Shown: in pieces, positions 6,960 to 63,304 of the stretch
How positions within the stretch are numbered: position 1 is the stretch's first letter
How the letters are laid out: the number at the start of each line of letters is the position of its first letter
Assembly: GCA_965215005.1 (NCBI GenBank)
Contig: CBDCCZ010000014.1
Location: forward strand, 96,001 to 160,000
DNA from: Kofleriaceae bacterium
GTDB lineage: Bacteria; Myxococcota_A; Polyangia; Haliangiales; Haliangiaceae
Direction: 5' to 3'
DNA: 64,000 nt
Made by a program: the position numbers and the translations under genes
Notes under the pieces: generated by a model
Told to the model about the DNA's origin: nothing
Databases searched by the model: none
Seen by the model: the letters and a program-made list of their open reading frames with translations, nothing else

Positions 6960-7119
6960 GCGGCTCATGCTCCTGCTGCGGCACGAGTCGCAAATCCCAG
7001 TCGCGCTCGCAACCACTCATGGATGCCGGGGCCGAGGTTGGAGACTCCGCGTGGGGTGTGGGCTCCCTATGTGCCACCGCCGACGCTTCGTAAGCAGGCG
7101 ACTTTCCACGAGGGGCGCG

Positions 7120-7135
7120 TGGCATGGCGGTTGCT
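7120..7135 (+). promoter_or_regulatory. Putative sigma54 promoter
   Basis: TGGCAT-GGCGG-TTGCT, about 40 nt upstream of the ATG at 7175, which has a GGGGAG RBS. Confidence 0.65.
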
Positions 7136-7174
7136 CTGCACCAGATGGGACCGTTTCTGCCTCCGGGGAGCATC

Positions 7175-8431: not shown

Positions 8432-8446
8432 ATCGGCGCGCCTCCG

Positions 8447-30500: not shown

Positions 30501-31598
30501 TGCGGCGAGCGGCGGCGCGGCGCCTGAAGTCGACAGTGCCTCGCGCAGCGCTATCGCCGTTGGCCGGCGCTCAGGACCAGGTTCGAGCAGCGCCATGCAC
30601 AGAGCATCGAGCTCGCTCGGAATGCTCGCATCGATCGCCCTGGGAGCGGCGATCGATGCGCTGCCCTTGCACGCGAATAGCTCGCGGACCGAAGGTGCCT
30701 CCAGCGGCAATCGTCCGGTGAGAGCCTCGTAGAGCATCACACCCACGGAATACCAATCGCTGGCCGCTGTGAGCGTGCCCATGCCAGCCGACTGCTCGGG
30801 CGAGGCGTACGCAGGCGTGCCGAGAAACTGCCCCTCATCCGCTTGGAACGGCGAGATGAGCCCAAAGTCGCAAATCACCACCCGCCCCGATCGATCGACG
30901 AGCACGTTCGAGGGCTTGAGGTCGCGGTGCACCATGCCGCGCTCGTGCAGCGCCGCAACGCCATCGATCAACTGCGACAGCGCGCCGCGCAGCCGCTCAT
31001 GATTGAGCGTGGCACTCTCGATGAAACGCCGCCGCTGGCTACCACCGCCTCGTTGCAGGCTGTCGACCTCAACCGTTGCGAGCGTGGTCGTGGGGGCGGC
31101 AGTGATTTCCGCGCTGCGAGCGCTACCCCTTGCGTAGTTTTCGCTGGGATTACATGGCGAGCGCGAAGCCGAGCTCGCCACCTCGAGGTCAGCTCCCTCT
31201 GCCGCCATGAGATGCCGATGCGGCCGCACGTAGTCGAGAAATGTCCGCGCGTCTGCCACCAGCTCCATCGCCACGCACCACTCTCCGGCGTCAGCGTGCA
31301 GCTCGTAGAGCGTCGCGAGATTGGGGTGAACCAGATCGGCGAGGGCGCGAAATTCTTGTTTGAAACGATACAAGGAGTCCGGGCGCATCGCCGTGAGCAA
31401 CTTGAGAGCAACCTCGTGGCCGCGTACCGGATCGAAGACGCGATAAACCCGCCCCATCGCTCCCTGCCCCAAGCGCTCTCGCACCGCGAAGCGCCCAAGA
31501 GACCATTGCTCGCCGCTAGCTACAGGAGCTCGAGCGATTGCCGCCGTCGCATTGAGCAGCTCCGGTCGAGTCTTTGATTCCGCGATTACGTCATTCAT
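27551..31598 (-). CDS. Ser/Thr kinase - AAA (STAND-like) ATPase - TPR protein, paralog 1 (frameshift near 28895)
   Basis: HRDLKPSN, DFG, PFVGRAKEL, Walker A GPSGTGKT, IDDLQWGD; ORFs 28872-31598 and 27551-29050 together are collinear with the intact paralog. Confidence 0.85.
29973..30122. repeat. 150-bp palindromic element inserted in frame in kinase paralog 1
   Basis: 50 extra residues absent from paralog 2; hairpins GCAGAAATC(29996)...GATTTCTGC(30042) and AGTGGTTCACG(30091)...CGTGAACCACT(30120). Confidence 0.7.
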
Positions 31599-34500
31599 GA
31601 ATCCGCTCTATTCCACCCCCGAGTCGACCCACTGCGCTCATCGGCGGCATCATCCAATCGGCAAACCGGCTGGGCGCGCGCACCCCCTCCTGCTGCGCCC
31701 AGGAATGATAAATCGCGATCAGCTCGGCACCTTCGTCGCCGCCGAGCAGCTCGCCCAGCCGCGCCCGCAGGGGCATGGCGTAGAAATTTGCATCGGCAGA
31801 GTCGAAGCGCGCCACCGCGTCGGCGAAGAGCACGACCGCCGGTTCTCGCTGTCCACGGATCAGCGCGATCTCGGCGCGAATCGCGCGTGCATGTGCCAGC
31901 GCGAAGTACGGCAGCTTGCGATCCAGACGCGCGAGAACGCGCGCTGGCCACGCTGCCACTCGCAGCCACCGTTTTCGCTCCGCGGGTCGATCGATTGCCA
32001 GGCTGAGGGCGATGCGTCCAACCAGCTGCGCGGTATAGGCATACGGCAGCACGCAGCTGGCCAACGAGGACCGCGACATCCGCCGAAAAAACGGCGAGAG
32101 ATGGTCCCACGCCGCAGCAAGTCGTCCGTCGTAGAGCGCAATGTCGGCGTGCAGCGCGTGCCAGTAGAACTGCCGCAGCGTCGGCCGGCCCCGCACCGGC
32201 GGCCCAACGTCATCGAGCTGGGCGAGCGCTTGCGCGGGTTCATCGGCAGCAAGCCACGAATAGACACCGCCCTGGGCGCGCAAGCTGTCATAAAGGTACA
32301 AGTTGCCGTTCTCATGAGCGCGCCGCAACAGGGCTGGCAAGCGCGTGTTCAGCAGCGAAAGCGCGCCTCGATGCAACCAGGTGTTGACCAACGCCAAGCG
32401 CAGCTGGTCGACGTCATACGTAAACCGCGACTCCAGCTCTGCCCGAGCGATGCTGGACTCGATTGCCTCTGCTGCGACGTTCAGCTCTTCGTAACGCAAC
32501 AGTTTGACGTAGCCTCGCCAGCCATCGATGATCGCCACGAAACTAGGTGTCGCGTGCTCCGTTGCCAGCTCTGTGGCGCGCGCAAACAACGCTTCGCACT
32601 TGACCTTTCCGGTCATGCCTTTCATCGCCGCGAGAAAGAGCGCTTCGTAGGCAATCGCCATGGCCGCCCGCGTCGGCTCGCCGACCTCGAGCGCGTCCGC
32701 CAGCACCCGGCTCTGCAGCGCAAAGCCGAGCAGCGTATCGATAAAGCCAAGTCCGAGCGCGGTCTCCATGCCGAGATCCAGCCGCGCCAGCTCGCGCTCC
32801 GAGCACGCCGCTTCGAGCCGCAGCTGGCGCACGTCCGTGCGGCGGCCCAACAAACGAGCGCGCTGCCGTAAAATGGCCATGACCGCCGCGAAGGTCGAGC
32901 GCGGCAGCCCCGTGCCAACCGCGTGATTGGCTGCGCCGGCGTCGGCCATGGCCTCGTCCAGCCGGCCAACGCGCAACAAACACACCAGCGCCCGGCCGCG
33001 GAGATCTGCCGCCGTCGCTGGATCCACGTCGTTCGCCGCTTGGCGAAACGCCGCTGCTGCGGCGGCGAGCTGACCGGCGCGCTGCAGCGCATCCGCCCGA
33101 GCGATTTCTAGATGGGCGCGCTCAGGATCATTGGCGGGGCTCAGCTCGAGCGCGGCGCCGAGATGATTGGCGGCGCTGAAGAACGCCTGACCGTGGAGCG
33201 CTCGCTCCGCCGCCAACAACGCATACCCGCGGGCGCGATTCGCGGAGCCAGCGCCTCGCCAGTGATGAACCAGCGCCTCGAGATCGCGCTCGGGCACGCG
33301 CTCGAAGGCTCGCGCGAGCCGGCGGTGGAGCTTCTTGCGCGCTGGCTCGGTCATCGCAGCTACCACGGTTTCGCGGATGCGGTCGTGATAGGTGGTGAGG
33401 CGCTCGCCCTCGCGGGTTTGCTCGACGCGCAAAAAGCGACCAACGCGCAGCTGCGCCAGCGCTTGTGCGACCTCCACGACCCGCGCCGCTGCCACCAAAA
33501 CGTCGACGGGCTGCGGACGTGCAGCCAAGGCGGCAGCTTGCAGGAGATGGCGCGCTGGGTCGGGCAGCTCCGCCGCGCGATGACCGAGCAAGGCGTCGAG
33601 GCCGTGGAAGCTGGTCGCGAAGCTGTCGCGCGCAAACGCCAGCTCGGCGGCAAAGAACGGATTGCCTTCCGACTCGCGGGCCAGCCGTTGCACCAGCGGC
33701 GCCTCGGCCGACTCTCCGGTAAGCGTCGCGACGAGACCCTCGACCTCGTGCCGTCCCAGCGGCGCGAGTTCGAGCAGTCGCACGTCAGCGTTGGCACCCA
33801 CCACGCCCAGTTGGATGCGTAGCGCGGCGATCAGGGCAGGATCCCCGGCGCCATCGTTGCGATACGTGCCGAGGAGCAGCACGCCCGGCGACTCGGGGGC
33901 TTGCGCCAGCTCTACCAGCAGCGGCGCACTGTCGGCATCGCCCCACTGCAGATCGTCGATGCTAACGATCACCGGCCGGTGCTGTGCCAAACGGGCGAGC
34001 AGCGTCCGCAGCGCTACCGCGGCGCGACGGCGAATGGCGGCAGCGGGAGCACTGAGCTCGTTGCCAGCAAGCGCCTCGGCCACGGCCGCCGCTCGCCGCA
34101 GCGTCGGGAACAGGTGCGCGAGCGCATCGATTTCCTCGGGAACGACGCGGCGCGCGAGCTCGGGCGCGCCGCGAAGAAACCCGGCGATGGCATCGATCAC
34201 CGCATCGAGCGCCTTGAACGGAACCGACTCGCCTTCGTAGCAGCGCCCCGCGAACACCACCGCGTCGGTGTCATGAGACAGCGTCTCCACCGCATGCGCC
34301 ACCAGCGCGCTTTTGCCGGTTCCCGACGGCGCGCCCACGAGCACGGTCACCGCGCGGTTGGCTCTCGCGTCGGCAAACGCCGAGCGTATCCGCTCGAGCT
34401 CGGCAGCGCGGCCGACGAACGGAACATCGGGGGCGGCGCGGAAGCGCGACGGCATCGCCAGCGGAGCCACGCCGACGCTCGCCCGCAGATGCTCGGCCGG

Positions 34501-35493
34501 AGGGCGCCGCGCCGGCTCGATGTCGAGCAGCGCCATGGTTAGCGCGTCGAGCTCATCGCTCACGAGGCGGTTTACGCACCGCGGCGGCGTCACCGGCGCG
34601 ACGCTCTTGAGCGCAATGAGCTCATGAATGGTCGGTGCTTGAACCGGCAGCCGGCCGGTGAGCGCCTCGTACAACATCACCCCCACCGCGTACCAGTCAC
34701 TCGCCGTGGTGAGGCAGCTCGCTCCCGCTGATTGTTCCGGCGAGGCGTACGCAGGGGTGCCGAGAAACTGCCGCTCGTCGGCATGCAGCGGCGCGATCAG
34801 GCCGAAGTCGCAGATTACCACCCGACCTCGGCTGTCGACCAAAACGTTGGAGGGCTTGAGATCGCGGTGCAGCATGCCCCGCTCATGGAGCGCGGCAACG
34901 CCATCGATCAGCTGCGACAACGCGCTTTCCAGCCGCTCAGGGATGAGGACCGCCTGCTCGATGGCACGGCGGCGCGTGTCGCGAAGGCCGCCTTGCCTGC
35001 TCATCACGTCGGTGGTCGCCAGCGTCGGCGGCTGCGCGGAGGTCTGCGTGAGCTGCTGGGCCAGCGCCGCCGTCTCGAGCTCCGCGCTGCGATCGTCGGA
35101 GGACGGCGTGCGCGACGCCCCAAGCTCAGACTCCGAGCTGCCGGTGAGGCTGTCCGCAGGCGTGAGTATGTGTCGATAGGGGCGCACGTACTCGAGAAAC
35201 GAACGAGCGCCTTCGACGAGCTCCATCGCGACGCACCAGCCCTCGCCCTCAGGACTCGCGTGAAGCTCGTAGAGCGTCACCAAGTTTGGATGAATGAAAT
35301 CGGCGAGGGCGCGAAACTCCTGCTTGAAGCGATACAGCGAGTCGGGTCGCAGGGCGGTCAGCCACTTGAGCGCGAGCTCATGGCGTCGCACGTGATCGTA
35401 AACGCGATAAACGCGCCCCACGGCGCCCTCTCCCAACAGCTCGCGAACCGCGAAGCGGTCGCCCGGTACTCGCTCCTCGCCCCTCTCTGGCAT
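31591..35493 (-). CDS. Ser/Thr kinase - AAA (STAND-like) ATPase - TPR protein, paralog 2
   Basis: LGEGAVGRVY, HRDLKPSN, GTPAYASPE, APSGTGKS, IDDLQWGD, SEGNPFF; RBS GGGGGAG before ATG 35493. Confidence 0.9.
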   Translation of the reverse strand: MPERGEERVPGDRFAVRELLGEGAVGRVYRVYDHVRRHELALKWLTALRPDSLYRFKQEFRALADFIHPNLVTLYELHASPEGEGWCVAMELVEGARSFLEYVRPYRHILTPADSLTGSSESELGASRTPSSDDRSAELETAALAQQLTQTSAQPPTLATTDVMSRQGGLRDTRRRAIEQAVLIPERLESALSQLIDGVAALHERGMLHRDLKPSNVLVDSRGRVVICDFGLIAPLHADERQFLGTPAYASPEQSAGASCLTTASDWYAVGVMLYEALTGRLPVQAPTIHELIALKSVAPVTPPRCVNRLVSDELDALTMALLDIEPARRPPAEHLRASVGVAPLAMPSRFRAAPDVPFVGRAAELERIRSAFADARANRAVTVLVGAPSGTGKSALVAHAVETLSHDTDAVVFAGRCYEGESVPFKALDAVIDAIAGFLRGAPELARRVVPEEIDALAHLFPTLRRAAAVAEALAGNELSAPAAAIRRRAAVALRTLLARLAQHRPVIVSIDDLQWGDADSAPLLVELAQAPESPGVLLLGTYRNDGAGDPALIAALRIQLGVVGANADVRLLELAPLGRHEVEGLVATLTGESAEAPLVQRLARESEGNPFFAAELAFARDSFATSFHGLDALLGHRAAELPDPARHLLQAAALAARPQPVDVLVAAARVVEVAQALAQLRVGRFLRVEQTREGERLTTYHDRIRETVVAAMTEPARKKLHRRLARAFERVPERDLEALVHHWRGAGSANRARGYALLAAERALHGQAFFSAANHLGAALELSPANDPERAHLEIARADALQRAGQLAAAAAAFRQAANDVDPATAADLRGRALVCLLRVGRLDEAMADAGAANHAVGTGLPRSTFAAVMAILRQRARLLGRRTDVRQLRLEAACSERELARLDLGMETALGLGFIDTLLGFALQSRVLADALEVGEPTRAAMAIAYEALFLAAMKGMTGKVKCEALFARATELATEHATPSFVAIIDGWRGYVKLLRYEELNVAAEAIESSIARAELESRFTYDVDQLRLALVNTWLHRGALSLLNTRLPALLRRAHENGNLYLYDSLRAQGGVYSWLAADEPAQALAQLDDVGPPVRGRPTLRQFYWHALHADIALYDGRLAAAWDHLSPFFRRMSRSSLASCVLPYAYTAQLVGRIALSLAIDRPAERKRWLRVAAWPARVLARLDRKLPYFALAHARAIRAEIALIRGQREPAVVLFADAVARFDSADANFYAMPLRARLGELLGGDEGAELIAIYHSWAQQEGVRAPSRFADWMMPPMSAVGRLGGGIERIHE

Positions 35494-35806
35494 GGTGCTG
35501 GCTCCCCCAATTCTCACGACCGCAACCCCTAGATTTTCCTATTCTGCCATACCCGCCGCCGCCGATGGAGCCCCACCCCGCTGCTTCCAACGTGGAGGAA
35601 CCTCGCGCACACGTATCCCGCTGGTGAACGTTCGCGACCAGCGTGTTGCCCGGCGAACGCGGACAGCTGAAACGAGGGGGCCTCGGTGTCGAAGACCGCG
35701 TGCTGCGCGTTTCGTCAGCTGCCTGTGGCTCACGGTTAGTTGCCGCCCGGCAACAAGTCCAGCGTGACCGGGCGCGCCAGACGCGCCACGTGCTGGTTCG
35801 CAACCG

Positions 35807-35822
35807 TGGCACGCCGGCTGCT
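35807..35822 (+). promoter_or_regulatory. Putative sigma54 promoter of the RiPP cluster
   Basis: TGGCAC-GCCGG-CTGCT immediately upstream of ATG 35835. Confidence 0.6.
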
Positions 35823-35834
35823 CTACGCGCCGCC

Positions 35835-37082
35835 ATGGTGGCTACGCCGCTTCATGCATTTTTACCGAGCCCGGCTGTCTCCGAGCGTTCCTGTGAAGGG
35901 CCGGTCTGCGATCTCTTTGCAGCACTAGGCGGTCCCGACTTCCGCAAGCAGCAATTCGGCCGCGAGCTGGTATTTCGGCCCAACGCACTTTCACCCGAAG
36001 CGGCGCAAGGCCTACTCGACGTCACCGACGTCGAAGCACTCGTCCACACCCGCGGCGTCACCACGCGTCAGCAAATCGGTACCCGACACCGCGACGCCAC
36101 CATGGTTCGCTCGTTGCGCAGTCCGGGCGAGCTATACGAGCGGCTCACGGAGGGAGCCTCGCTTCAGCTGCGGCACCTCGAGGGTATTCTTGCACCGTCG
36201 GCGCCTCTGTCGCGAGCCGCGCAAGCTCTCGAGCACGCGCTCCAGCACCCGCTCGACTCGGTAAGCTGCTTTCTGACCCCACCCGGCAGCGCGACGCTGG
36301 GGCTCCACCACGACGCCACCGAAATCGTCACGATTCAGGTGCGTGGCACCAAACGATGGCGTCTCTACCACCGCGTATGGTCGCCGGAATCGGGGACCCA
36401 CGCCGCCGACGAGGTCGATGCCCCCGAGGTCGAGCTCACACTTGCGCCTGGCGACATCTTGTACACGCCAGGTGGCCTCATCCATGAGGTCGAAGCCGCG
36501 GATGAGCTGTCGATGTCGGTAACGATCGTCTTCGCGCCGTTGCGTTGGAATATCCTCCTCAACGTTCTCACCGAGCGCGCGGCGCGCCTTGCCCCGTTGC
36601 TCGATCTCGTCGATTTGACGGCAGCAGATGCAAACGGCTCCGAGGCTTTGGCGGCGGCCTTCGCTGCTCGCCGAGACCTGCTCATCGAGGAGCTCGAGCG
36701 CATGAACGTCGACGAGCTCGCTCACCGGGCACGCGAGCAACTGCTGACGGCGATGACTTGGAGCCACCGGCCCCATCTCGACGATGCATTCGCGGCCGCT
36801 CGCATCGATCTGGATACCCGCCTCGAGCATCGCTTCCCATGCGAGCTAGCCGTGTGTCGGCGCGGCGGACACGTTCACCTCACGGGTCCCGGCGGGACCG
36901 CCGCGGTGCTCCCGGCCGCCATCGAGCCCGAGCTTCGCGCGCTCGCTGCGCGGCGAGACGTCTGGCCGGTGATCGAGCTGTCCGCCCGCCTCCCCGAGAC
37001 CGAGCGCGTGGCGCTAGCGCGTCAACTGGTCCGGTCTGGGCTGATCCGCATCGCGCGCGGCAGCCAGGAGCCGCTGCCATGA
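35835..37082 (+). CDS. JmjC/cupin Fe(II)/2-oxoglutarate oxygenase (RoxA/YcfD-like) #1
   Basis: GLHHDATEIVTIQVRGTKRWRLY...PGDILYTPGGLIHEV (HxD...H triad); winged-helix-like C-terminus LARQLVRSGLI. Confidence 0.85.
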   Translation: MVATPLHAFLPSPAVSERSCEGPVCDLFAALGGPDFRKQQFGRELVFRPNALSPEAAQGLLDVTDVEALVHTRGVTTRQQIGTRHRDATMVRSLRSPGELYERLTEGASLQLRHLEGILAPSAPLSRAAQALEHALQHPLDSVSCFLTPPGSATLGLHHDATEIVTIQVRGTKRWRLYHRVWSPESGTHAADEVDAPEVELTLAPGDILYTPGGLIHEVEAADELSMSVTIVFAPLRWNILLNVLTERAARLAPLLDLVDLTAADANGSEALAAAFAARRDLLIEELERMNVDELAHRAREQLLTAMTWSHRPHLDDAFAAARIDLDTRLEHRFPCELAVCRRGGHVHLTGPGGTAAVLPAAIEPELRALAARRDVWPVIELSARLPETERVALARQLVRSGLIRIARGSQEPLP

Positions 37083-37954
37083 ATGCCCCCCGCAGTCTGT
37101 CGCAGCTCGTCGGTCCAGAGGGACTCGCCGCGTTCTTTTCCGCGCATTGGGGCCACACGCCGTTGATTCGGCAAGTGATGGCGCCGGCGGAAGCGCTGCA
37201 ACTCGTTGACGAGGAGCAGTTTTGGATGCTCGTCGAGCGCGCAACTCGGCTTCCTGGCCAGCACGTGCGGGTGGCGCGCGCTACTACACGCGCAAACGAA
37301 CAACAGCGCTGGCTCACTCGCGCTCACGATGCGCGCGCCGCTTACCGCGACGGCTGGAGCATAACGCTTCACCATCTCGGCGCACTGCTTCCGCCCCAGC
37401 ACCCGCTCGTGGAGCTGGAGCGTGACATCGCCGACTCTGTCGGGGCTCTCGCCGAGGAGGCGCAGGTCGCCGCCATCCTGACCCCGAGTGGCGCGCGCGG
37501 CTTCACCATTCACCAGGACGACAACGAGTTCTTCTCGCTCCAGCTCGCCGGAACCAAAACGTGGACCCTCCACGGCATCGCCCCAACCCACGTGCGCGGC
37601 GCCGAGTGTCCCGTAACAGAGCGCCATGAGCTGGAATCTGGCGCCATGCTCTACGTCCCGCGGCACACTGTGCACGAGGTCGATGCCACCCCGGCCGCGA
37701 GCCTCTCCGCGGTGCTGATGTTCCGCGTCCCCACCTGGGCTCGCCTCGTGCGCACGCTGATCGAGCGAGCTCTGGTGGTCGACACCGATCGGCGCTGGCA
37801 CCGCACCGTTCCGCCCGCGCTCCTCCGCGGCTGCGGAGATGACACCGCCGCCGCCCAGGCCCTCGACCACCTCGCGCTGATCGCGGGCGCATCCGGGCTA
37901 CTGCGCGAATGGGTTCGCGAGCGAGAGGACACGCACCGCGGGCGCTCAAGCTAA
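37079..37954 (+). CDS. JmjC/cupin Fe(II)/2OG oxygenase #2
   Basis: FFSAHWGHTP, GFTIHQDDNEFFSLQLAGTKTW...GAMLYVPRHTVHEV; ATGA overlap with #1. Confidence 0.85.
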   Translation: MNAPRSLSQLVGPEGLAAFFSAHWGHTPLIRQVMAPAEALQLVDEEQFWMLVERATRLPGQHVRVARATTRANEQQRWLTRAHDARAAYRDGWSITLHHLGALLPPQHPLVELERDIADSVGALAEEAQVAAILTPSGARGFTIHQDDNEFFSLQLAGTKTWTLHGIAPTHVRGAECPVTERHELESGAMLYVPRHTVHEVDATPAASLSAVLMFRVPTWARLVRTLIERALVVDTDRRWHRTVPPALLRGCGDDTAAAQALDHLALIAGASGLLREWVREREDTHRGRSS

Positions 37955-38004
37955 CTCGCCTTACTTTTCCCGACCCTTTGCGATCAACCACAAGGAGACA
38001 TGAG

Positions 38005-38337
38005 ATGAAGAAAATGAACGACACCCTTAAAGCCCAAATCCGTCAGCTGCTTCGCCTAGCGGCCACCGATCCCGAGGTTCGCGCCGAGCTCCTCGCCGAT
38101 CCGGCATCTGCGCTCCGGCGCTTCGCTGGGGTCGAGATCGCGGCGGCCGACCTGCCTAGCTTCGTCGCCAGCGACGACGAGGCGTCGAGCGAGGACGCCA
38201 TCGTGATCCCGGCGCTGATCGCGCGTCCGCTCGGCAGCAATGAGCTGGCCGCCGCCACCGGAGGACGACAGTACGAGAACTGGGGCGGCGAGTTCGTCTC
38301 GGCCGCGATGGAGAACTGGGGCAGCGAAGTCATCTAA
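38005..38337 (+). CDS. NHLP-leader (proteusin-type) RiPP precursor peptide
   Basis: AAGGAG RBS; leader LLRLAATDPEVRAELLADPASAL...IVIP...LGSNELAAATGG; 23-aa core RQYENWGGEFVSAAMENWGSEVI. Confidence 0.88.
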   Translation: MKKMNDTLKAQIRQLLRLAATDPEVRAELLADPASALRRFAGVEIAAADLPSFVASDDEASSEDAIVIPALIARPLGSNELAAATGGRQYENWGGEFVSAAMENWGSEVI

Positions 38338-38345
38338 TCACCGCC

Positions 38346-38377
38346 GACGCCGCACGGTCCACGGGCCGTGCGGCGTC
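38346..38377 (+). other. Stem-loop downstream of precursor gene (mRNA stabiliser or partial terminator)
   Basis: GACGCCGCACGG...CCGTGCGGCGTC 12-bp perfect inverted repeat with no U-tract. Confidence 0.6.
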
Positions 38378-38404
38378 CCCGCATGCACTGCCAGGAGCGC
38401 CCCC

Positions 38405-40135
38405 ATGGAAACCTCTCAGCTCAAGCTCATCGCTGATGGCGCCCGCACTCTCGAGGAGCTCGCGCGCGACCCAGAGCAGCGCGACGATGCGCCCTGGCGC
38501 GCGGCGTGGGCGTCTGCCATCGCCGGTCCCGGAGAATCTCCTGACGCCGTGCTGGCAGCGCGCTACGCCGAGCTCGGTGCGTATCGAGCGGACGAGCGCT
38601 GGCTTGACCTCGTCGCATATGCCCTCGGACGGGCCGCTCCGCCGGTCGAGCAGCCGCCCGAGCAGCCTGCGGCATCGGCATTCGTAGGGCCCTTCGTGAG
38701 CGCCGCGGCATTTTTTCTTACTAGTCGGCTCGAGAACGATGCCGTGCTAGGACCAGAGGCGTGGGCCGAGCTCGAGCGTGAGCTCGCTCGCGAGCTCGCC
38801 GCCTGCGCTGAGCAGGTCGTCACGCTCGAGCTCAACCTCTGGAAGGCGGCCCCGACGCTCGCCACCGCGAGCAGCTGGATCACCGGCCTTGACCGACGTA
38901 CCTACGGCGAGATCCTGGTCACGTATCCGGCGCTGGCCAGAATTCTGGCTGAACGTGCGCTGCTCTGGGTTGACCGCGTCTGTGCACTCGTGGCTCGGTT
39001 CACCCGCGACGGACACGCGCTGCACGAATCGCTGGCAGTTCCGCCCGGCGCCCGCGTGGTCTCCGTCCAAAGCACTCTCGGAGATCCGCACCTGGGGGGC
39101 GGCACCGCGCTCATCCTGCACCTCGAGCCGGGGCCGACGATCGTCTACAAACCACGGCCCGTAGACGCCGAAGCGTACCTTCTCGAGCTCGACCACTGGC
39201 TCGCCGCCCGCAATCCCGAGCTGGGGCTCCGACTCATGCCGGTGATTCCGCGGCAGGGCTATGGGTGGATGGGCTTTGCGCCACACCGCGCCTGCCGTTC
39301 GATGGAGGAGATCGAGAAGTTCTATCGCTGCGCAGGCCGGCTGCTCGGCATCCTGCACCTGCTGTGCGGGACCGATATGAACCACGAAAACATCATCGCG
39401 ATGGGCGACGCCGCGGTGCCGATCGATACCGAGATGCTGTTTACCCCGCAGCTGCACCCAGACGAGCACGAAGCTCGCTCGACGGTGCTCGATACTCTGC
39501 TCTTGCCCACCCCAGCTGCGGAGCGACCCGATCATCCTGCGGATCCCTGTGGATTGGGCTCGTGCACCGGCTCGTGGAATTCGCGCGGGCAGTGGTTTGC
39601 GAGTCAACACCAGCCCCGCCTAGGTGACCGGCGCGTACCCGCACACGAACATGCGGCGGCCATCGATGAGGGATTCACCGCGATATATCGCGCGGCCCTC
39701 CGCCACGAGCGTGAGCTCATCGCGCAGAGCGGTCCGCTCGAGCGCGCTGCGAGCATCATCACGCGCATCGTCAGGCTCACCACGGTCCAATACGCTCGCA
39801 TCCTCGGCGCCAGCTTTCAGCCCGAGCTCCTTCGTGCCGGCTACCGGCGCGGCGCGTTGCTGGAATCGCTGACGCGGGGCCTGTGGACGGTCGAGCACGA
39901 CGGTGCACGACAGGCACGCACCGTCCGCCTGGACGAGATTCGCTCGCTCCTCGTCGGTGACGTCCCCTACTTTCAGATTCGCGCCGACGCCGCCGGCGCC
40001 CCGGTGGGCTTCGTGCGGTCCGGCCTCGATCGCGCGCGGCGCCGGATCGAGCGGCTGTCGGAGGACGACCTCGATCGCCAGCGGGCCATCATCCACCAGA
40101 GCTTTCGCCATGAGCAGGAGGAGCGCGTCGCGTGA
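38405..40135 (+). CDS. Stand-alone LanM N-terminal dehydratase/kinase domain (DUF4135-type), no cyclase
   Basis: GDPHLGG, IVYKPRP, GYGWMGF, FYRCAG, TDMNHENIIA, IDTEMLF, LLVGDVPYF, ends LSEDDLDRQRAII; AGGAG RBS; about 576 aa, no LanC domain. Confidence 0.88.
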   Translation: METSQLKLIADGARTLEELARDPEQRDDAPWRAAWASAIAGPGESPDAVLAARYAELGAYRADERWLDLVAYALGRAAPPVEQPPEQPAASAFVGPFVSAAAFFLTSRLENDAVLGPEAWAELERELARELAACAEQVVTLELNLWKAAPTLATASSWITGLDRRTYGEILVTYPALARILAERALLWVDRVCALVARFTRDGHALHESLAVPPGARVVSVQSTLGDPHLGGGTALILHLEPGPTIVYKPRPVDAEAYLLELDHWLAARNPELGLRLMPVIPRQGYGWMGFAPHRACRSMEEIEKFYRCAGRLLGILHLLCGTDMNHENIIAMGDAAVPIDTEMLFTPQLHPDEHEARSTVLDTLLLPTPAAERPDHPADPCGLGSCTGSWNSRGQWFASQHQPRLGDRRVPAHEHAAAIDEGFTAIYRAALRHERELIAQSGPLERAASIITRIVRLTTVQYARILGASFQPELLRAGYRRGALLESLTRGLWTVEHDGARQARTVRLDEIRSLLVGDVPYFQIRADAAGAPVGFVRSGLDRARRRIERLSEDDLDRQRAIIHQSFRHEQEERVA

Positions 40136-40671
40136 GAACCGAGCAGCTGATCGCCGCGATAGCGGCGCTCGAGGTGGCAAACATGAGCGACGTGCTCGCC
40201 GGCATGGGGGTCGAGCTCGACCAAGACGACATCCGCGCGTCGGTTGCCGCCGATCTCGCCCGCGGGATGCCGCTCGCTGCCGTCGTGGACGACGATGCTT
40301 TGCTCGGCTACTGGCGCTACGTACGCGAATGCGCGACCGGTGACGTGTTCCTCAAGAGTCTTCAGCTACGGGCGCCCGGCCGGTCGGCGGCCGCGCTGCG
40401 CACCCTCCTGTCGACCGCGCGGCACTGCCTGGCTGCCGAGAACGGCAAGACCGTGCGTGCCGTCGTGCAGCGCCAGAACCTGCGCTCCCTCGGCATCCAT
40501 CGGCGGCTAGGCTTCCATGTCGCGCGCGAACATCCGCATGCGCTCGCCCTCGCGATCGACCGCAACCGCCTCGTCGCGAGCTTGCCCCACCCCCGGCGCG
40601 GGCCCGTGGTCCTCCTCAATGCCCCGCTCGACGGCGGCTTGCGGCCGACGAGCCCCCACGAGGCATCATGA
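40132..40671 (+). CDS. GNAT family N-acyltransferase
   Basis: LLGYWRY...VFLKSLQL...VRAVVQRQNLRSLGIHRRLGF (motif B); GTGA/ATGA overlaps on both sides. Confidence 0.75.
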   Translation: MRTEQLIAAIAALEVANMSDVLAGMGVELDQDDIRASVAADLARGMPLAAVVDDDALLGYWRYVRECATGDVFLKSLQLRAPGRSAAALRTLLSTARHCLAAENGKTVRAVVQRQNLRSLGIHRRLGFHVAREHPHALALAIDRNRLVASLPHPRRGPVVLLNAPLDGGLRPTSPHEAS

Positions 40672-41846
40672 GCACACGCATCTTCGAACGTCTATTCCCC
40701 TCCCTCGGCCACGACGGCTTCATCCGCAGCGCGTATCCGACCCGGCCGGTCATCGAGCACGCGCCGCCAAGCCGCTTGGGACCACTCTGGGACGACCCGC
40801 GCTTCGATGATCCCGCGGCGCTTATCGAGACGGCGCCGCCCTACCCGCGACCGGTCGCGTACGTCCGCGGTCCCGAGGGCGGTCCTACTCGACAGATCCG
40901 TACGGATCCGGTCACCGCCGCAGCGCTGTATCGCCGCGGCGCCACCGTAGCCCTCGACGACGGCCAACCGATAGCGGCCGAGATCGGTGCCTGGAACCGT
41001 CGTATGACGCGAGAGCTGGGTCTGGGACGGCGCGAATCTCCGGTGGCGCTGGTAGCCTCGCCCGCCGGCGAAGGCGTACCTACCCACTTCGATGGACTCG
41101 AGGTCATCGTGATCCAGCTCCGCGGGCGCAAACGGTGGCGGCTGGCCGCGAACGAAGTCCACGAGCACCCGACGTTCCGATTTCTCCCGGGCGAAGGGGG
41201 CCGCCCGGCCCGCGACCGCAACGTGCAAGCACAAGCCTTCGCGGACGAGCTGCAGGTGCCGGACATGGAGGATGCGCAGACCACTGTCCTCGAGCCCGGT
41301 TCGGCGCTGTTCTTGCCCAGGGGTTGGTGGCACACGACCGAGTGCTTGGAGCCGAGCATCTCGCTCACCTTCCGCCTCGCGGCCATGACCGGATTCCGCG
41401 CGGTCGCGGATGCCATCGCCAGTGAGCTCGCAAATCATGCTGCGTGGCGCTGCCCCCTCGCCGCGCCGATCGGCGAGCTCGATGCTCCCACCGAGGAAGC
41501 CCTGACCGTCCTCGTCGAGCGCGCCCAAGCTGCGCTCCCGGGGCTACTTTCCCAGCTCGCGCTCCGCCGCGTCCTCACGGGCCCCCAGTACGCGCCCACG
41601 CGCGAGCAGCCCCTCCACTTCGATCACGACGCCTCTCGCATCGTCGTTGGCGCTTCCAGCGCCGACCCGCGCTGTCTCCCTGTTCCGGCCACGGTGGCAC
41701 CGATCGTGACGTGGCTGGCCGAGCGGCAAGCCCCCTTCGCCGAACGGGACGCGCTCGCCTGCGCTCCCGATGCCGATCTCCGCGACCTCGACCGCGCGCT
41801 GGCCTGGCTGTGCTCGGTCGGCTTCCTCGTGCGCCTAAACGCCTAA
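40668..41846 (+). CDS. JmjC/cupin Fe(II)/2OG oxygenase #3
   Basis: GVPTHFDGLEVIVIQLRGRKRW...LEPGSALFLPRGWWHTT; winged-helix-like C-terminus LAWLCSVGFL. Confidence 0.87.
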   Translation: MSTRIFERLFPSLGHDGFIRSAYPTRPVIEHAPPSRLGPLWDDPRFDDPAALIETAPPYPRPVAYVRGPEGGPTRQIRTDPVTAAALYRRGATVALDDGQPIAAEIGAWNRRMTRELGLGRRESPVALVASPAGEGVPTHFDGLEVIVIQLRGRKRWRLAANEVHEHPTFRFLPGEGGRPARDRNVQAQAFADELQVPDMEDAQTTVLEPGSALFLPRGWWHTTECLEPSISLTFRLAAMTGFRAVADAIASELANHAAWRCPLAAPIGELDAPTEEALTVLVERAQAALPGLLSQLALRRVLTGPQYAPTREQPLHFDHDASRIVVGASSADPRCLPVPATVAPIVTWLAERQAPFAERDALACAPDADLRDLDRALAWLCSVGFLVRLNA

Positions 41847-48479: not shown

Positions 48480-49745
48480 ATGCCGTCCACCGCCCCCACG
48501 CCAGCTCCTCGTCCGCGACTCCGCCCAGTGGCGCGCGTCGTGTATCTGCTGGTGTTGGCGATTGGGGTGTTCTTCTTACCCGATTGGTGGATGGTGGGCG
48601 GCGTGCTCGGCGCGCAGCTCGTGCTGTGGTACGTCGTGGGCCTGCAGACGAGTGCGCTCTTGCGGCAGGTGCGCAAGCTGGTGCTGTTCTTGAGCTTCAT
48701 CTTCGTTGCGTACGCGCTCGTGAGCTACGAGCCGGCGGCCGACGTGTGGCATCGGGTGTCGGTGTTCGGGTGGTTTTCGCTGCGCTGGAATGAAACGGGA
48801 GCCCTTGCCGGCTTCACGATGGTTCTGCGGATACTCACGATCGTGCTGGCGTCGCAGCTCGTGCGCGCCGGCGACTCGCGCGCGATCGCCGCCGGTCTCG
48901 GCGCGCTCGGCGTTCCCACCACCGCCGCGCTATCGATTGACTTGGTGTTGGTGTTGCTCGGCGATCGCGGCAAGCGCGGCGGTGGCGGTGGCGGTGGCGG
49001 TGGCGGTGGCGGTGGCGGTGGCGGTGGACGCGGACGTGGGGGCGGCCGAGGCGCGGCTTTTGGAGGGTTCTGGGCGAGTCTTGGCCGACTCGCGCGTGGC
49101 GACGTCTCGATCATCGCCGAGCGGCTGCACCGGCAAGTCGAGCGCGTCGAAGAACACATGGAAGAGATCGGCCACCGCGCGCCGCCTCACGTCGCCCGCG
49201 ACATCGCGGTCATTTCCGGCGTCGCGTTGACCATGCTCGGCATCAAGGTCCTCAAGCTCCTGCCGGGCCTTCCCTTCGCCCCCGGTCACAAGGGCGTCTT
49301 GCTGATACCGCTCTACATCGTCGCCGGTTGCATGACTCGTAGCCGCACTGGGGCCACCGCGACCGGCTTCGTCATGGGAACCGTTGCGTTCCTGTTGGGC
49401 GATGGCCGTTATGGCGTCTTCGAGATCGTTAAGCACGTCGCGCCAGGGGTGCTCGTCGATTTGCTGTTGCCGCTGATGCGTACTCGCACCGGAGCGCTCC
49501 GACGCGGTATCATTGCCTGGTCATTCTTTGGAATCGTTGCAGCACTGGGGAGGTTCGCGACGGTCACCGCCATTGCGTTGGCTGTTCAAGCCCCGGCCCT
49601 AGTGTTCGCGTTCTTGATCCCCGGACTCCTCGTTCACGCCGTATTCGGAGCCCTTTCAGGAATCGTCACCGCGCCGCTCGTGCGCGCGCTGGAGACGAGC
49701 GGGTCGCCGCGTGAGCGACCCGGCAGCAACAGAGAGGCAGCATGA
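48480..49745 (+). CDS. Membrane protein, apparent fusion of ECF T-component-like and S-component-like domains with poly-Gly linker
   Basis: N-half MVLRILTIVLAS...AIAAGLGALGVP (CbiQ/EcfT-like); Gly17; C-half PGHKGVL...GATATGFVMG...APGVLVDLL with about 6 TM helices. Confidence 0.65.
   Translation: MPSTAPTPAPRPRLRPVARVVYLLVLAIGVFFLPDWWMVGGVLGAQLVLWYVVGLQTSALLRQVRKLVLFLSFIFVAYALVSYEPAADVWHRVSVFGWFSLRWNETGALAGFTMVLRILTIVLASQLVRAGDSRAIAAGLGALGVPTTAALSIDLVLVLLGDRGKRGGGGGGGGGGGGGGGGGRGRGGGRGAAFGGFWASLGRLARGDVSIIAERLHRQVERVEEHMEEIGHRAPPHVARDIAVISGVALTMLGIKVLKLLPGLPFAPGHKGVLLIPLYIVAGCMTRSRTGATATGFVMGTVAFLLGDGRYGVFEIVKHVAPGVLVDLLLPLMRTRTGALRRGIIAWSFFGIVAALGRFATVTAIALAVQAPALVFAFLIPGLLVHAVFGALSGIVTAPLVRALETSGSPRERPGSNREAA
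48978..49025 (+). repeat. (GGCGGT)x8 coding microsatellite, poly-Gly linker
   Basis: Read directly; part of a run of 17 Gly codons. Confidence 0.9.
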
Positions 49746-50581
49746 GCTCAAAGCTGATGACCGGTGACGGTCGCACTCACATTCGCTCGAAACTGATGCA
49801 GGAATCGCTACAAAATCGCGGCGTCCTCGAAGGCGCCGACAGCGATCGCGACCTGCAAATCTTTCCCGACGTCGCGCTCGTGAGCATCGGCGGTCAGAGC
49901 ATCTTCGACCGCGGTCGCGACGCGATCTTGCCGCTCGTCGACGAGCTTGCCGAGCTCAAAACCCAGCACCGCATGGTGATCGCCGTGGGTGGCGGCACGC
50001 GGGTTCGTCACACCGCATCGATCGCCCTCGATCTGGGCCTGCCGGTCGGCGGCGTCGCCCAGCTCGTTGGTGCGATGGAAGAGCTCAATGCAGTGATGCT
50101 CAACGCGCTGTTGGCCAAGCACGGCTCGATGACCATGCAGCGCGATCACTTCTGGGAGCTGCCGCTCTACCTGGCGGCGGGCATGCTGCCCATCGCGATC
50201 TCCATTCCGCCATATCACCTGTGGGAGCCGCCGCCCAAACACGGCCACCTGCCCGCCCACGGCTCCGATTTCGGCCTGTTCCAGATGGCCGAGGTTTTGG
50301 CGATGAAACAGCTCATCTTCATCAAGGACGAAGACGGCCTGTACGATAAAGATCCCAAGAAGCACGACGACGCCAAACACATCCCGGAGATCACGCTCGA
50401 GGCACTGCTGGCCAATCCGCCAGCAGAGAACATTCTCGATGCGGAGCTTTTTCAAGCCTGGAAACACGCGCGCAACGTGCGCCGCGTGCAAATCATCAAT
50501 GGCCTCAAACGCGGGGAGCTCGCCAAAGCGCTGCGCGGAGAGAATAACGGCACCGTCATCGTCAAGGAGCGAAACGCGTGA
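49742..50581 (+). CDS. Molybdenum storage protein-like subunit 1 (amino-acid-kinase fold, MosA-like)
   Basis: HIRSKLMQESLQ, IGGQSIFDRGRDAILPLVDEL, LDLGLPVG, PPYHLWE, KDEDGLY, VQIINGL match the Azotobacter MoSto subunits as recalled. Confidence 0.8.
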   Translation: MSSKLMTGDGRTHIRSKLMQESLQNRGVLEGADSDRDLQIFPDVALVSIGGQSIFDRGRDAILPLVDELAELKTQHRMVIAVGGGTRVRHTASIALDLGLPVGGVAQLVGAMEELNAVMLNALLAKHGSMTMQRDHFWELPLYLAAGMLPIAISIPPYHLWEPPPKHGHLPAHGSDFGLFQMAEVLAMKQLIFIKDEDGLYDKDPKKHDDAKHIPEITLEALLANPPAENILDAELFQAWKHARNVRRVQIINGLKRGELAKALRGENNGTVIVKERNA

Positions 50582-51384
50582 GCGAGCGACAAACTCTCGA
50601 AAGCCGCCTCTCGGGCTCGACCCTTACCGGCGCCGACGACCTCACCGACTTCCAAGCGGTCGCCGTGATGCCCGAGCTTCGCGTCGTCAAGCTCGGCGGC
50701 CAAAGCATCATGGATCGCGGCCGCGCCGCAGTGTTTCCGATTCTCGAGGAGATTGTCGCGGCACGCAAAGAAGGCATCCCGATCCTCATCCTTACCGGCG
50801 GCGGTACCCGCGCTCGTCACGTTTACGCCATTGCGAGCGATCTCGAGATGCCCACCGGCGTCATCGCCTCGATCGGCGGCTACATCCCGATGCAAAACGC
50901 CCGCATGATTCAGATGCTGCTCGCCAAACACGGCGGCGTCTACATCATGCAAGACGACTTCGAAAAGCTGCCGCTCTACATTCAGATGGGATGCATCCCC
51001 ATCATGACCGGCATGCCGCCGTTCGGGTATTGGGAGAAACGCGGCGAGGATGGCCGTATTCCCGCCAATCGAACCGATGCCGGCGTGTTCTTATCCGCGG
51101 AGTTTCTCGGTTGCCGACGCGCGATCTTCATCAAAGACGAAGCCGGCCTCTACACCGACGACCCGAAGAAGAATCCCAAAGCCGAACACATTCCGCGCAT
51201 CAGCGCTACCGAGCTCATCGAGCGCAACCTCGATGACTTGATCGTCGAGCGCGTCGTCGTTGAATACATGACGCGCGCGCGCTGGGTTCGGGAGCTCCAA
51301 ATCGTCAACGGCCTCGAGCCAGGTCAGGTCACCAAAGCCCTCCGCGGCGAAGACTGCGGCACGATCATCTACCACGAGGGATGA
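50578..51384 (+). CDS. Molybdenum storage protein-like subunit 2 (MosB-like)
   Basis: KLGGQSIMDRGRAAVFPILEEIVAARK, TGGGTRARHVY, GMPPF, IPANRTDAG, KDEAGLYTDDPK, IPRIS; GTGA overlap. Confidence 0.82.
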   Translation: MSERQTLESRLSGSTLTGADDLTDFQAVAVMPELRVVKLGGQSIMDRGRAAVFPILEEIVAARKEGIPILILTGGGTRARHVYAIASDLEMPTGVIASIGGYIPMQNARMIQMLLAKHGGVYIMQDDFEKLPLYIQMGCIPIMTGMPPFGYWEKRGEDGRIPANRTDAGVFLSAEFLGCRRAIFIKDEAGLYTDDPKKNPKAEHIPRISATELIERNLDDLIVERVVVEYMTRARWVRELQIVNGLEPGQVTKALRGEDCGTIIYHEG

Positions 51385-60959: not shown

Positions 60960-62606
60960 TCACCGTATTCTGAGGGTTGCGAATAGCCCAGCTTCGCCCG
61001 ACCACTCCTTTTCAAGGAGCCGGGCTTCAAGCTCCATCATACGCGCGTATGAGAGGCTGTATTGAAGAGCTGGATGACGGTACTCGTCGTGCTTTCGTCG
61101 CTCGTAGACCTCGATGAGCTTCTTGCGCCCAGTGTCTGACAGCCAGACTTGTGCTCCGGTCACCGTGAAGTCATCGTCCGGGTGGAACGTTCGGCGGTTT
61201 ACAGCACCGAGAATGGCCATATCGACGAGCGGGACGCGAAACAGTTCCATCAGGTCGAGGGCGAGCGGGTAGCTCGCAGACCGCGGCTGGTGTAGGAAGC
61301 CTAGCGCAGGCTCGAGTCCTACCCGCACAATCGCACTATAGACGTCTCGCTAGAGCAGGCCGTAGGCGAACGAGAGCAGTGAATTAAATCGGTCAAGGGG
61401 CGGCCGCTTAGAGCGGCCCTGAGGAACCATGGACTCCCCGGCATCTGGCGAGACGAGAGCTCTAAGCGAATCGAAGTAGGCTCGCGCACCCTGGCCTTCG
61501 TAGCCCATTAACTGCTCGCGGCTATCTCCTTGGAATGCGCCCCGGACGGCGGCCCTAAGCCGCACTAAGCTCGTCGAGCAGCTCGTGCGAATCGTCGGCT
61601 TGCCGCGGCTGGCCCGCATGATGTGCTGGATCTGCATTTGAATCTTCGCGATGACCAGCCGACGCGCCAGTTCGAGCGAGGTGGCCTCGTTTCGCAAGCC
61701 TTCGAACTGCCGGATGCGACGCTGAACACCGCCGGACTGCCCCGCAAACGAACCAATGAAGCTTCCGGACGCGGCGATGAAGTGCACCGGGATATCGGCG
61801 CTAGCACAGAGTCGCAGTGCTTGGGTCGTAATCTGCGCGAAGCCGTGGAGCACCACGTCGCTAACCTCGCGGGTGCCGATGACGGTCTTCTTCCCGTCGC
61901 GGGGCACGACAACGAGTGTCTCGCCCGAGCGCGTGACGCGGGCACCGGAGGACACCACATGCACCGACCGACGTTCGGTATCTATGGGAAAGAGACGCAC
62001 TGGAGTGGGCTTAGATTCCGTGTCGGGCACCTGCGCGAAGCGAGCCTCCTCCGGAAGGCACACTGGCGCGAGGGAGCACCTCACACATCGCCGTTCGTGC
62101 ACCGTGACGGGGGGACGTTCGGTCGAGACGCGGAGCTGACCGGCACGTTCGACCACCCGTATGACCTGACCACGCAGGTTCTCGTCGATGGGGACCCGAA
62201 GCGTAAGATTATCCTTATGATAACGAACACGAGCTTCGGGAATGGATGACGAGGTGTGTTCCTCGAGTAGCATGGCGTAAGCTGCAAGCTGGATCGCGTC
62301 GCTATCCCATGGCTGCGCCTCGCCGTTGATCGTGCGCGAGCATCGCCCGCGCTTGTGCTCAATGGGAAACATCGCTCCGTCACGCCGCCTCACGGCGTCC
62401 ATTCGCCCGCGAATACCAAGCACCTCTGACTCCAGCGTCAGATTGGTGATCTCCGCTGGCTCGTCAAGCTCGGCATGAAGGCGGCGCCCCGCCCAAACCG
62501 CTTCGTCAGCGACGCGAATCTCCTCGACCTCCTCGAGATAGAAGAGACGCTCGCAGTACGCGAGCGCGTGCAGAGCCATTACGCGGATTGTCGGCGAGGC
62601 TGTCAT
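60960..62606 (-). CDS. cas1: Cas4-Cas1 fusion with in-frame TAG at 61350-61352
   Basis: YCERLFY, GRMD, IEHKRG, QLAAY, CVRCSLAPVCLP (Cas4); LMGYEG, NSLLSFAYGLL*RDV, GFLHQPR, LALDLMELFR (Cas1). Both ORF pieces are in the same frame. Confidence 0.92.
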
Positions 62607-63304
62607 GTCTCCTCCACGAGGCCGGGGTTCTGCGGGACCCACGCCCACGCTTCGGCAGGAATCGAGGCAGATTCCGCCAGGGGAGCAAAGACGGCGGACG
62701 TGGTGCGGCTGCTGTCGAGGCGGTCGATGCCGATCGTAAGCCTGCTAGAGCCTTTCCGGGGCGGATCGCCGGCGCCAATGGGTGCATACCAGCGACAGCG
62801 CGGAGGCTCATTGAGGACATCCGCGCGATCGAGGAGGAGGTTGTTGTCGCCTGCATGTGGCAAGCCGTAGCGAGGCGTCTCCAGCTCGCCGGCCAGCCCG
62901 CGCCCCACGCGCGCCAGCACCTCGTCCGCGCCTCGCGCAGCGATGACGCAATCCAAGCCCACCAAGAGCTCGCGGCGAGCGGGCGCGATCCAATACTTGG
63001 CCCCATGGGATCGCGCCTTGTACTCCTTGCCGGAGTTCCCGACGGGATAGGTGTGTAGCTGCTGGTACAGCGACGTCGTGGAGGCTTCCGCCACCGCACC
63101 GACGGCGATCTCCAGGGCTGGTGCGTCGGATCGAACCGTCGTGATAGTTTTTCGCTCCGGACCCCGCGTGTCGATGCCCGCTAGGTTGAGGAGCAGGCCC
63201 CAAGCCGCCGAAGGCGGTATGACCGGGCTCGTCGCGCGGTAAACGCCAGCCTGCAGCCATCGAAACGCGGCAAAAGGAGCGCGAACGCGTATGCACAGAT
63301 TCAT
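62603..63304 (-). CDS. cas5: Type I (MYXAN/I-B-like) Cas5/DevS
   Basis: IRVRAPFAAFR...PPSAAWGLLLNLAG...YQQLHTYPVG...KYWIAPARRELL...PRYGLP. Confidence 0.9.
   Translation of the reverse strand: MNLCIRVRAPFAAFRWLQAGVYRATSPVIPPSAAWGLLLNLAGIDTRGPERKTITTVRSDAPALEIAVGAVAEASTTSLYQQLHTYPVGNSGKEYKARSHGAKYWIAPARRELLVGLDCVIAARGADEVLARVGRGLAGELETPRYGLPHAGDNNLLLDRADVLNEPPRCRWYAPIGAGDPPRKGSSRLTIGIDRLDSSRTTSAVFAPLAESASIPAEAWAWVPQNPGLVEET

Follow-up and report, generated by a model that had tools for sequence, protein, structure and literature searches.

A 64,000-nucleotide stretch of the draft genome of a Kofleriaceae bacterium (contig CBDCCZ010000014.1, positions 96001–160000; hereafter the window) carries a six-gene operon, A to F, that is real and probably a functional cluster for a peptide made by the ribosome and modified after translation (RiPP), a singleton in which known parts occur in a new arrangement. 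A precursor gene (C), with an NHLP-like leader and a Cys-free core, lies among three JmjC oxygenase genes (A, B and F), a gene for a stand-alone LanM-type domain (D) and a gene for a small protein that is probably of GNAT fold (E). The DNA itself shows the gene order, the domains to which the proteins belong, the catalytic residues that are conserved and a leader that is collinear with an NHLP leader. The assembly comprises 6.2 Mb in 62 contigs and is 92.8% complete. An earlier description of the locus, made by a model from the letters alone and called here the sequence-only reading, had proposed a new RiPP system, and its claims are taken up with the results that bear on them.

The precursor peptide

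The precursor divides into a leader (residues 1–87, 38005–38265), which ends in TGG, and a 23-residue core (residues 88–110, 38266–38334) with the sequence RQYENWGGEFVSAAMENWGSEVI. The core contains no Cys and no Lys, has two Ser residues (Ser99 and Ser107), begins with Arg88 and includes two similar 9-residue blocks, each with ENWG; Cys is absent from the whole 110-residue precursor. The best match among solved structures is the NHLP leader 8tb1_A, with which the precursor is collinear (residues 4–90 on 5–88, E 0.049) and TGG falls on TGG. Because that E-value is weak, the alignment indicates resemblance to an NHLP leader rather than proof of one, and because the two TGG motifs coincide, cleavage is predicted after Gly87. 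Pfam gives only one match for the precursor, the duramycin-type leader family at a weak E of 0.0078, and a six-frame search of the genome returned it as the sole TIGR03793-like match (E 0.038, 16.4 bits). The gene has a GC content at third codon positions (GC3) of 0.81, and an AAGGAG motif at 37992–37997, 7 nt before the ATG, confirms the strong ribosome-binding site that the sequence-only reading had described.

The stand-alone LanM-type domain

D matches DUF4135 over profile positions 1–377 of 378 (E 3.9e-76) and ends 51 residues past this domain, with no LANC_like match in the protein; against TIGR03897 it scores 299 bits, where the cut-off is 304. Solved LanM enzymes are recognizable relatives (LicM2, 6st5, E 1.9e-41; CylM, 5dzt, E 1e-17). 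Residue roles in CylM, as given in the structure paper (PMC4550811), were mapped onto D through a D–CylM alignment, and eight of nine catalytic positions are kept. All four elimination residues are present (D227, H229, R454 and T460, equivalent to CylM D252, H254, R506 and T512), as are four of the five phosphorylation residues (K249, D324, N329 and D341, equivalent to K274, D347, N352 and D364). The remaining position, the histidine of the DxH motif, is Asn in D (N326 at CylM H349), and the residue after it is His. Of the 149 closest representatives in a search of 1.84 billion proteins, 147 have His in the N326 column, and between 140 and 149 agree with D in the other eight columns.

Neither feature of a class II lanthipeptide, a LanC domain and Cys in the core, is found here. 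Their joint absence at the locus counts in favour of the pathway proposed below, and since the cluster has no cyclase and the core no Cys, no thioether ring is possible. Judged by its sequence, D shares a stand-alone domain and a Cys-free precursor with the phospeptin system, but not the loss of elimination residues.

The three JmjC oxygenases

A, B and F score 67.2, 49.3 and 63.4 bits against JmjC_2 (PF08007), all above the Pfam cut-off of 22 (E 1.3e-18, 4.5e-13 and 1.9e-17). The claim that all three retain the HxD...H iron triad holds: this triad and one Lys are invariant in a 6-sequence alignment (A, B, F and three homologues) and in a 15-sequence alignment. The residues are H158/D160/H217 with K173 in A, and H140/D142/H222 with K155 in F; the metal triad of B aligns with those of A and F in both alignments. 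Given the cut-off, the metal triad and the 2-oxoglutarate (2OG)-binding Lys, the three proteins qualify as putative PF08007 Fe(II)/2OG hydroxylases. They are only 21–25% identical to one another. MINA53 and NO66 are the best solved relatives of A (E 2e-12 to 7.5e-11), which also resembles YcfD (E 7e-6), and of B, whereas F is closest in sequence to Bacillus subtilis YxbC.

An AlphaFold model of F built with the 15-sequence alignment (pLDDT 83.8, pTM 0.76) has the JmjC double-stranded beta-helix fold; Foldseek places it nearest to YxbC (7zcc_A, E 4.9e-19, target TM 0.76), followed by NO66, YcfD and MINA53. Past the catalytic domain the model contains strands 307–310, 316–319, 324–327 and 335–338 and then helices 341–352, 359–365 and 371–383. 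Compared by element order only, this predicted strand-then-helix arrangement is that of RiPP recognition elements (RREs) fused to JmjC domains, fusions that are described as occurring in RiPP contexts (PMC12710340). A aligns with F across the C-terminal region, whereas the shorter B lacks it. A predicted complex of F with the precursor (15-row alignment) gave ipSAE values of 0.19 and 0.08, against a mark of 0.32, and counts neither for nor against binding.

Peptide hydroxylases of the PF08007/JmjC type are established in the curacozole (PMC11575548), biphenomycin (PMC12707348) and phaeornamide (PMC8784127) pathways, and YxbC is also reported as the top structural neighbour of the RiPP Phe hydroxylase CzlI (PMC11575548).

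Operon architecture and coding evidence

The sequence-only reading had described six co-oriented genes with overlapping start and stop codons, a sigma-54-like promoter and a hairpin downstream of the precursor (Table 1). The gene arrangement is borne out by the open reading frame (ORF) positions and by coding-like base composition: 4-nt overlaps join A and B (ATGA), D and E (GTGA) and E and F (ATGA), and GC3 is 0.75–0.85 and GC2 0.48–0.54 across A to F, with similar values in the adjacent kinase gene. Shine-Dalgarno-like motifs lie 6–10 nt 5' of the starts of B to F, with AGGAG before B. Inspection of the upstream sequence revealed no Shine-Dalgarno motif 5' of the gene A start at 35835, so a leaderless transcript is conceivable for this gene; an alternative in-frame GTG start lies at 35790.

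Table 1. Genes and sequence elements of the operon and its divergent neighbour (window positions).
Feature	Position	Strand	Size or basis
Ser/Thr kinase with AAA_16 domain, divergent from the operon	31591–35517	-	1308 aa; Pfam
Sigma-54-like -24/-12 element, TGGCAC-N6-TGC	35807–35821	+	13 nt 5' of gene A ATG
Gene A, JmjC oxygenase 1, ribosomal-oxygenase-like, with C-terminal extension	35835–37082	+	415 aa
Gene B, JmjC oxygenase 2, without C-terminal domain	37079–37954	+	291 aa
Gene C, precursor peptide	38005–38337	+	110 aa
Perfect GC-rich hairpin between C and D, 14 bp, without T-run	38346–38377	+	9 nt past precursor stop
Gene D, stand-alone LanM-type dehydratase (kinase/lyase) domain, without LanC	38405–40135	+	576 aa
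Gene E, small protein, probably GNAT-fold	40132–40671	+	179 aa
Gene F, third JmjC oxygenase	40668–41846	+	392 aa

The hairpin is present as described, and with a folding energy of -36.2 kcal/mol (z -2.69; 3 of 200 shuffles as stable) it may serve as an attenuator or mRNA stabiliser. The promoter claim stands in part. The motif occurs where it was placed, but the window contains two occurrences of its pattern where 0.74 are expected, a count that 17 of 100 shuffled sequences attain as well; we rejected it as an above-chance feature and regard it as a weak lead only. Sigma54_activat has 55 matches in the genome and none in the window. The public sequencing runs that contain the stretch are two, from one sample that is probably its source, and neither is RNA.

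Comparison with described pathways

The sequence-only reading held that the enzyme set matches no recognized class while citing polytheonamide and selidamide precedents. The precedents, PoyF/PoyI and the selidamide GNAT, agree with PMC9505594 and PMC8784127; the claim of no matching class overlooks the phaeornamide enzyme set (PMC8784127) and the stand-alone LanM domain of phospeptin (PMC9259500).

The phaeornamide (pha) cluster of Pseudophaeobacter arcticus is reported to contain an NHLP precursor ending in Gly-Gly, a GNAT, the PF08007 hydroxylase PhaI and a LanM (PMC8784127), so that the likeness consists in an NHLP-type GG precursor, a GNAT, a PF08007 hydroxylase and a LanM-type enzyme in one cluster. 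As described there, the LanM of pha is complete (PF13575 plus PF05147) and forms a methyllanthionine, and the cluster further encodes a peptide arginase (PF12640), a single hydroxylase and a peptidase and exporter of its own. The operon in the window contains three genes of the PF08007 family but lacks LanC; its core is free of Cys and Lys, its E is only weakly GNAT-like, and an arginase, protease and exporter were not found. The comparison is one of published descriptions.

Polytheonamide biosynthesis, according to PMC9505594, shares an NHLP leader, a cyclase-less LanM-type dehydratase domain (PoyF, which dehydrates one N-terminal Thr) and an Fe(II)/2OG hydroxylase (PoyI). The poy pathway is further described as using a radical SAM epimerase and radical SAM methyltransferases, an N-methyltransferase and its own protease, none of which was found here. 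In phospeptin, EmbM is a stand-alone LanM dehydration domain acting on the Cys-free precursor EmbA to give a linear product; EmbM is presented as the sole maturase, phosphorylating Thr only and with mutated catalytic-site residues (PMC9259500), whereas D keeps the elimination residues and is accompanied by three oxygenases and E.

The oxygenases have counterparts in CzlI (PMC11575548), BipG (PMC12707348) and MppG (bioRxiv 10.64898/2026.10.04.756588), which belong to the Fe(II)/2OG enzymes of JmjC or JmjC-like type, have a 2-His-1-Asp site and act on precursors that carry a leader; among solved folds, YxbC is nearest to CzlI and F alike, and the RRE domain of MppG binds a long Nif11-type leader (bioRxiv 10.64898/2026.10.04.756588). 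Each of those pathways uses a single enzyme of this kind, partnered by YcaO, MNIO/radical SAM or LanM enzymes, whereas three paralogues share the operon described here. A literature search made largely without subscription papers or supplements found no published case of several JmjC genes with a LanC-less DUF4135 protein. The exact set of three JmjC genes, a LanC-less DUF4135 and a Cys-free ENWG-repeat core is unusual, occurring in no other locus or paper searched.

Distribution and relatives

Relatives of the individual proteins are distant. A word-indexed search of 5.8 billion proteins returned the precursor itself only, of 214 candidates, and among 401 same-class genomes 11 (self included) had a match at E <= 0.01, the best other one (E 7.3e-4 per genome) being at the level of chance over 400 genomes. 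For D, the word-indexed search gave just three distant matches, while the best non-self match among the 1.84 billion representatives reached E 1e-49; such matches share 31–38% identity and are mostly about 1000–1100 aa, the length of a full LanM. Among 61 related genomes, D has a match in 14 (non-self identity at most 40%, the strong matches in long open frames) and F in 20 (best non-self identity 36%); E has no relative in these genomes or in the word-indexed protein search. A related-locus search of genome contigs with D yielded 124 pattern matches and no relative, and JGI metagenome contigs yielded one spurious 54-residue match.

With a 5-sequence D alignment as query, 185,579 species were scanned, each represented by one genome, and 312 relatives were confirmed; when D was aligned with short DUF4135 proteins (14 sequences in all), no stretch was conserved enough to serve as a query. 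Of the 82 DUF4135 ORFs in the best 80 of the 312 loci, 75 are at least 800 aa long, and in these 80 loci, taken with flanks of up to 10 kb per side, a JmjC profile found no match even at E <= 1. The same profile found 20 ORFs in loci of related genomes, including ORFs outside the set used to build it.

One 578-aa DUF4135 frame in a related genome (G019) was considered as a stand-alone parallel to D and rejected: the LanC part is encoded by the following ORF, and the pair is a split LanM. At that locus (L025, G019:C19:890000-904000; 6129–9276, +), the DUF4135 ORF (572 aa) and the LanC ORF (496 aa) lie in different frames, and an IS66 transposase follows about 0.7 kb 3' of the latter. Elsewhere in the class, two tandem NHLP-type precursors (41.5 and 30.6 bits, sub-cut-off) lie directly 5' of a full LanM in a 1157-aa frame (G055:C2:556422-559979).

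The closest homologue of F, 36% identical over 367 residues, belongs to a relative of the same family (L021, G024:C223; 4549–9473, -), where the JmjC gene adjoins the genes for a complete LanM of 1127 aa and for a precursor that has a GG leader and two Cys, next to type VI secretion genes. Like the window operon, this locus combines an F-like JmjC protein, a DUF4135 enzyme and a GG-leader precursor; unlike it, the locus has LanC, two core Cys, a single JmjC gene and no E homologue. Another locus of a related genome (L023, G011:C160:40000-59000) contains an APH kinase, four JmjC genes flanking a YcaO gene, a DUF6445 gene and a multicopper oxidase, and in a third (L024, G021:C3:7000-21000) two JmjC genes flank a TfuA-YcaO fusion and a radical SAM gene. 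JmjC oxygenases therefore recur beside RiPP core enzymes in this bacterial family, as the loci at G024:C223, G011:C160 and G021:C3 indicate, and the window operon is a variant whose core enzyme, a LanM, lost the cyclase and whose core peptide lacks Cys. A further locus (L022, G011:C101:22000-38000; 4592–10497, +) encodes a TylF-type methyltransferase, a 308-aa protein kinase, a JmjC protein, an FmdA/AmdA-like amidase, a second JmjC protein and a Fur regulator, with a TonB-dependent receptor after them, and may be another tailoring cluster.

Genomic neighbourhood and processing genes

The absences that the sequence-only reading listed are borne out: radical SAM enzyme, YcaO, LanC, C39 peptidase and ABC exporter were found neither in the six genes nor in the 43 (16 + 27) other window ORFs scanned with Pfam. 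Peptidase_C39 has three matches in the genome, all on other contigs and the best in a 781-aa open frame on contig C18, so a protease-exporter able to act in trans exists in the genome, and processing of the precursor in trans may follow this route.

Contig C18 also carries a second JmjC-plus-precursor locus (L026), in which a 71-aa ORF (6624–6839, +) with a double-Gly leader and a Pro/Gly-rich core is followed after 4 nt by a 412-aa JmjC_2/Cupin_8 gene (6843–8081, +); upstream is the gene for a Ser/Thr kinase of 1234 aa that carries AAA and TPR domains. The C39 match in the transporter-like 781-aa frame (C18:242469-242855, -) is about 7 kb from L026, and a sigma-54 activator is encoded at C18:238832. 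Given this second locus, the pairing of a JmjC protein with a GG-leader peptide is not a one-off in the organism. A large Ser/Thr kinase adjoins both of these loci, an association that is anecdotal with two loci; the 1308-aa kinase beside the operon may be a regulator and is a candidate cluster member only. On the 3' side of the operon follow three convergent ORFs without Pfam match. Farther away in the window lie two overlapping genes of the amino-acid kinase family (49715–51384, +; 288 and 278 aa), after several Pfam-less ORFs, and, near the window end, a Cas4-Cas1 fusion of 464 aa (61350–62744, -).

Proposed pathway and alternative explanations

In the pathway that we propose, C would supply a precursor whose 87-residue NHLP-type leader, ending in TGG, would bring the 23-residue Cys-free core to the Fe(II)/2OG JmjC oxygenases A, B and F. 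Hydroxylation by these enzymes would fall on side chains in the two ENWG-containing blocks and/or on Arg88, Tyr or Phe. The leader would likewise present the core to D, a putative ATP-using kinase/lyase, which would phosphorylate Ser99 and Ser107 and probably eliminate phosphate to form dehydroalanines that are left uncyclised. An acyl group may be added by E, probably a GNAT, to an amine or to one of the new hydroxyls, and a C39-peptidase ABC transporter from another part of the genome would cut the leader at the double-Gly and export the peptide. We infer all chemical steps and their order, the residues modified, what E does and the processing in trans; beyond domain identity, the scheme is a prediction from one draft genome. 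We lean moderately towards the view that the operon is a cryptic RiPP cluster working in this way. The product forecast by the sequence-only reading is reasonable as far as a linear, hydroxylated, dehydrated or phosphorylated peptide is concerned; the acylation that it added depends on a GNAT label that is sub-threshold.

Several results weigh against this pathway. The precursor stays below the cut-offs of the NHLP-clan models (NF038399, 21.4 bits against 40; TIGR04509, 19.7 against 34; TIGR03793, 16.7 against 50.9), so the NHLP label given to it earlier is sustained by the end-to-end collinearity with 8tb1_A, including TGG, but by no curated threshold. The CylM variant H349A is described as retaining only a little dehydration activity (PMC4550811), and D has Asn at this position. 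The GNAT label of E is not upheld at curated thresholds either (FR47, E 0.047; Acetyltransf_3, E 0.15, both below cut-offs), and a single-sequence AlphaFold model of E is unusable (mean pLDDT 38.4). All sub-threshold matches of E are nevertheless to families of the GNAT superfamily or to acetyltransferases, including the solved acetyltransferases 2bl1 and 1yvo (E 0.03), and in an Atlas language-model search the ten best family-bearing matches share the family or clan of the top match, GNAT (score 0.98), an agreement that a third of shuffled proteins reach equally; a GNAT fold remains, with moderate confidence, the probable one. The core offers no Lys or Orn acceptor to a selidamide-type GNAT, and a search for a PF12640 arginase, made in a 92.8% complete genome without a positive control and negative in control genomes too, found none. 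No protease or exporter is encoded among the window ORFs scanned. Finally, no orthologous cluster was found in any genome or protein set searched, so conservation cannot support function, and comparative support is missing because the cluster is a singleton.

An explanation in which D acts as a kinase only, phosphorylating Ser/Thr or a JmjC-made hydroxyl without elimination to give a linear phospho-/hydroxy-peptide, has a clear model in EmbM, a stand-alone LanM domain with a Cys-free precursor that stops at phosphorylation (PMC9259500 and PMC9505594), and the unusual active site of D, with N326 where 147 of 149 relatives have His, would suit it. The EmbM phenotype, however, accompanies mutated catalytic-site residues, as a figure legend of PMC9259500 states, whereas D keeps D227, H229, R454 and T460, all four of the CylM elimination positions, and we judge this outcome unlikely. 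The operon could instead be the decaying remnant of a class II lanthipeptide cluster that lost LanC and the core Cys and whose genes are degenerating or being reused with no defined product. Its singleton status with no orthologue found, the loss of the near-invariant catalytic His of D, the missing protease and exporter among the window ORFs scanned and the position of the closest JmjC relative in an ordinary LanM cluster (G024:C223) all fit such a history, and the split LanM near an IS66 transposase in G019 shows that such clusters break. Decay is nonetheless difficult to reconcile with six intact ORFs that have overlapping start/stop codons, Shine-Dalgarno motifs at B to F and host-like codon bias, with the clean end of D past a complete DUF4135, and with the retention of eight of nine D catalytic positions and every metal ligand of the three JmjC genes, which makes it a quite unlikely account.

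Of the same low probability is a selidamide-like lipopeptide, in which E would acylate near the core N-terminus (Arg88, position 1) after a JmjC enzyme has hydroxylated that residue, as with PhaI and PhaN. NHLP precursor, GNAT, PF08007 hydroxylase and LanM are all present in the pha cluster, where acylation is reported to target (hydroxy)ornithine at core position 1 or 2 and to be more efficient after PhaI hydroxylation (PMC8784127); the core here begins with Arg, and A resembles the Arg hydroxylase YcfD (E 7e-6). Against this stand the absence of Lys from the core and the failure of E to pass any GNAT model, and ornithine is unaccounted for because no PF12640 arginase was found in the genome in the search without positive control mentioned above. 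A more far-reaching idea is that the JmjC oxygenases and D form a two-step machine for alpha,beta-dehydro residues beyond Ser/Thr, with beta-hydroxyls placed on Asn, Glu, Trp, Tyr, Phe or Arg of the two ENWG-containing blocks and then either phosphorylated and eliminated by the N326-bearing D or O-acylated by E. We consider it highly improbable; if true, ribosomal peptides would have a further way of acquiring dehydro-amino acids, one so far undescribed, and the system would define a new RiPP class.

Implications

If the operon is active as we propose, its product would be a linear NHLP-type peptide without Cys, with three distinct JmjC oxygenases and a stand-alone LanM dehydratase as tailoring enzymes, and may represent a new RiPP subclass. 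The operon is a good candidate for heterologous expression, not a categorically new system. Its three putative leader-dependent peptide hydroxylases would be of use for peptide engineering, and D, as a natural active-site variant with Asn in place of the DxH His, is relevant to how the kinase site of LanM enzymes works. For the bacterial family as a whole, JmjC-rich RiPP pathways may be an under-explored theme.

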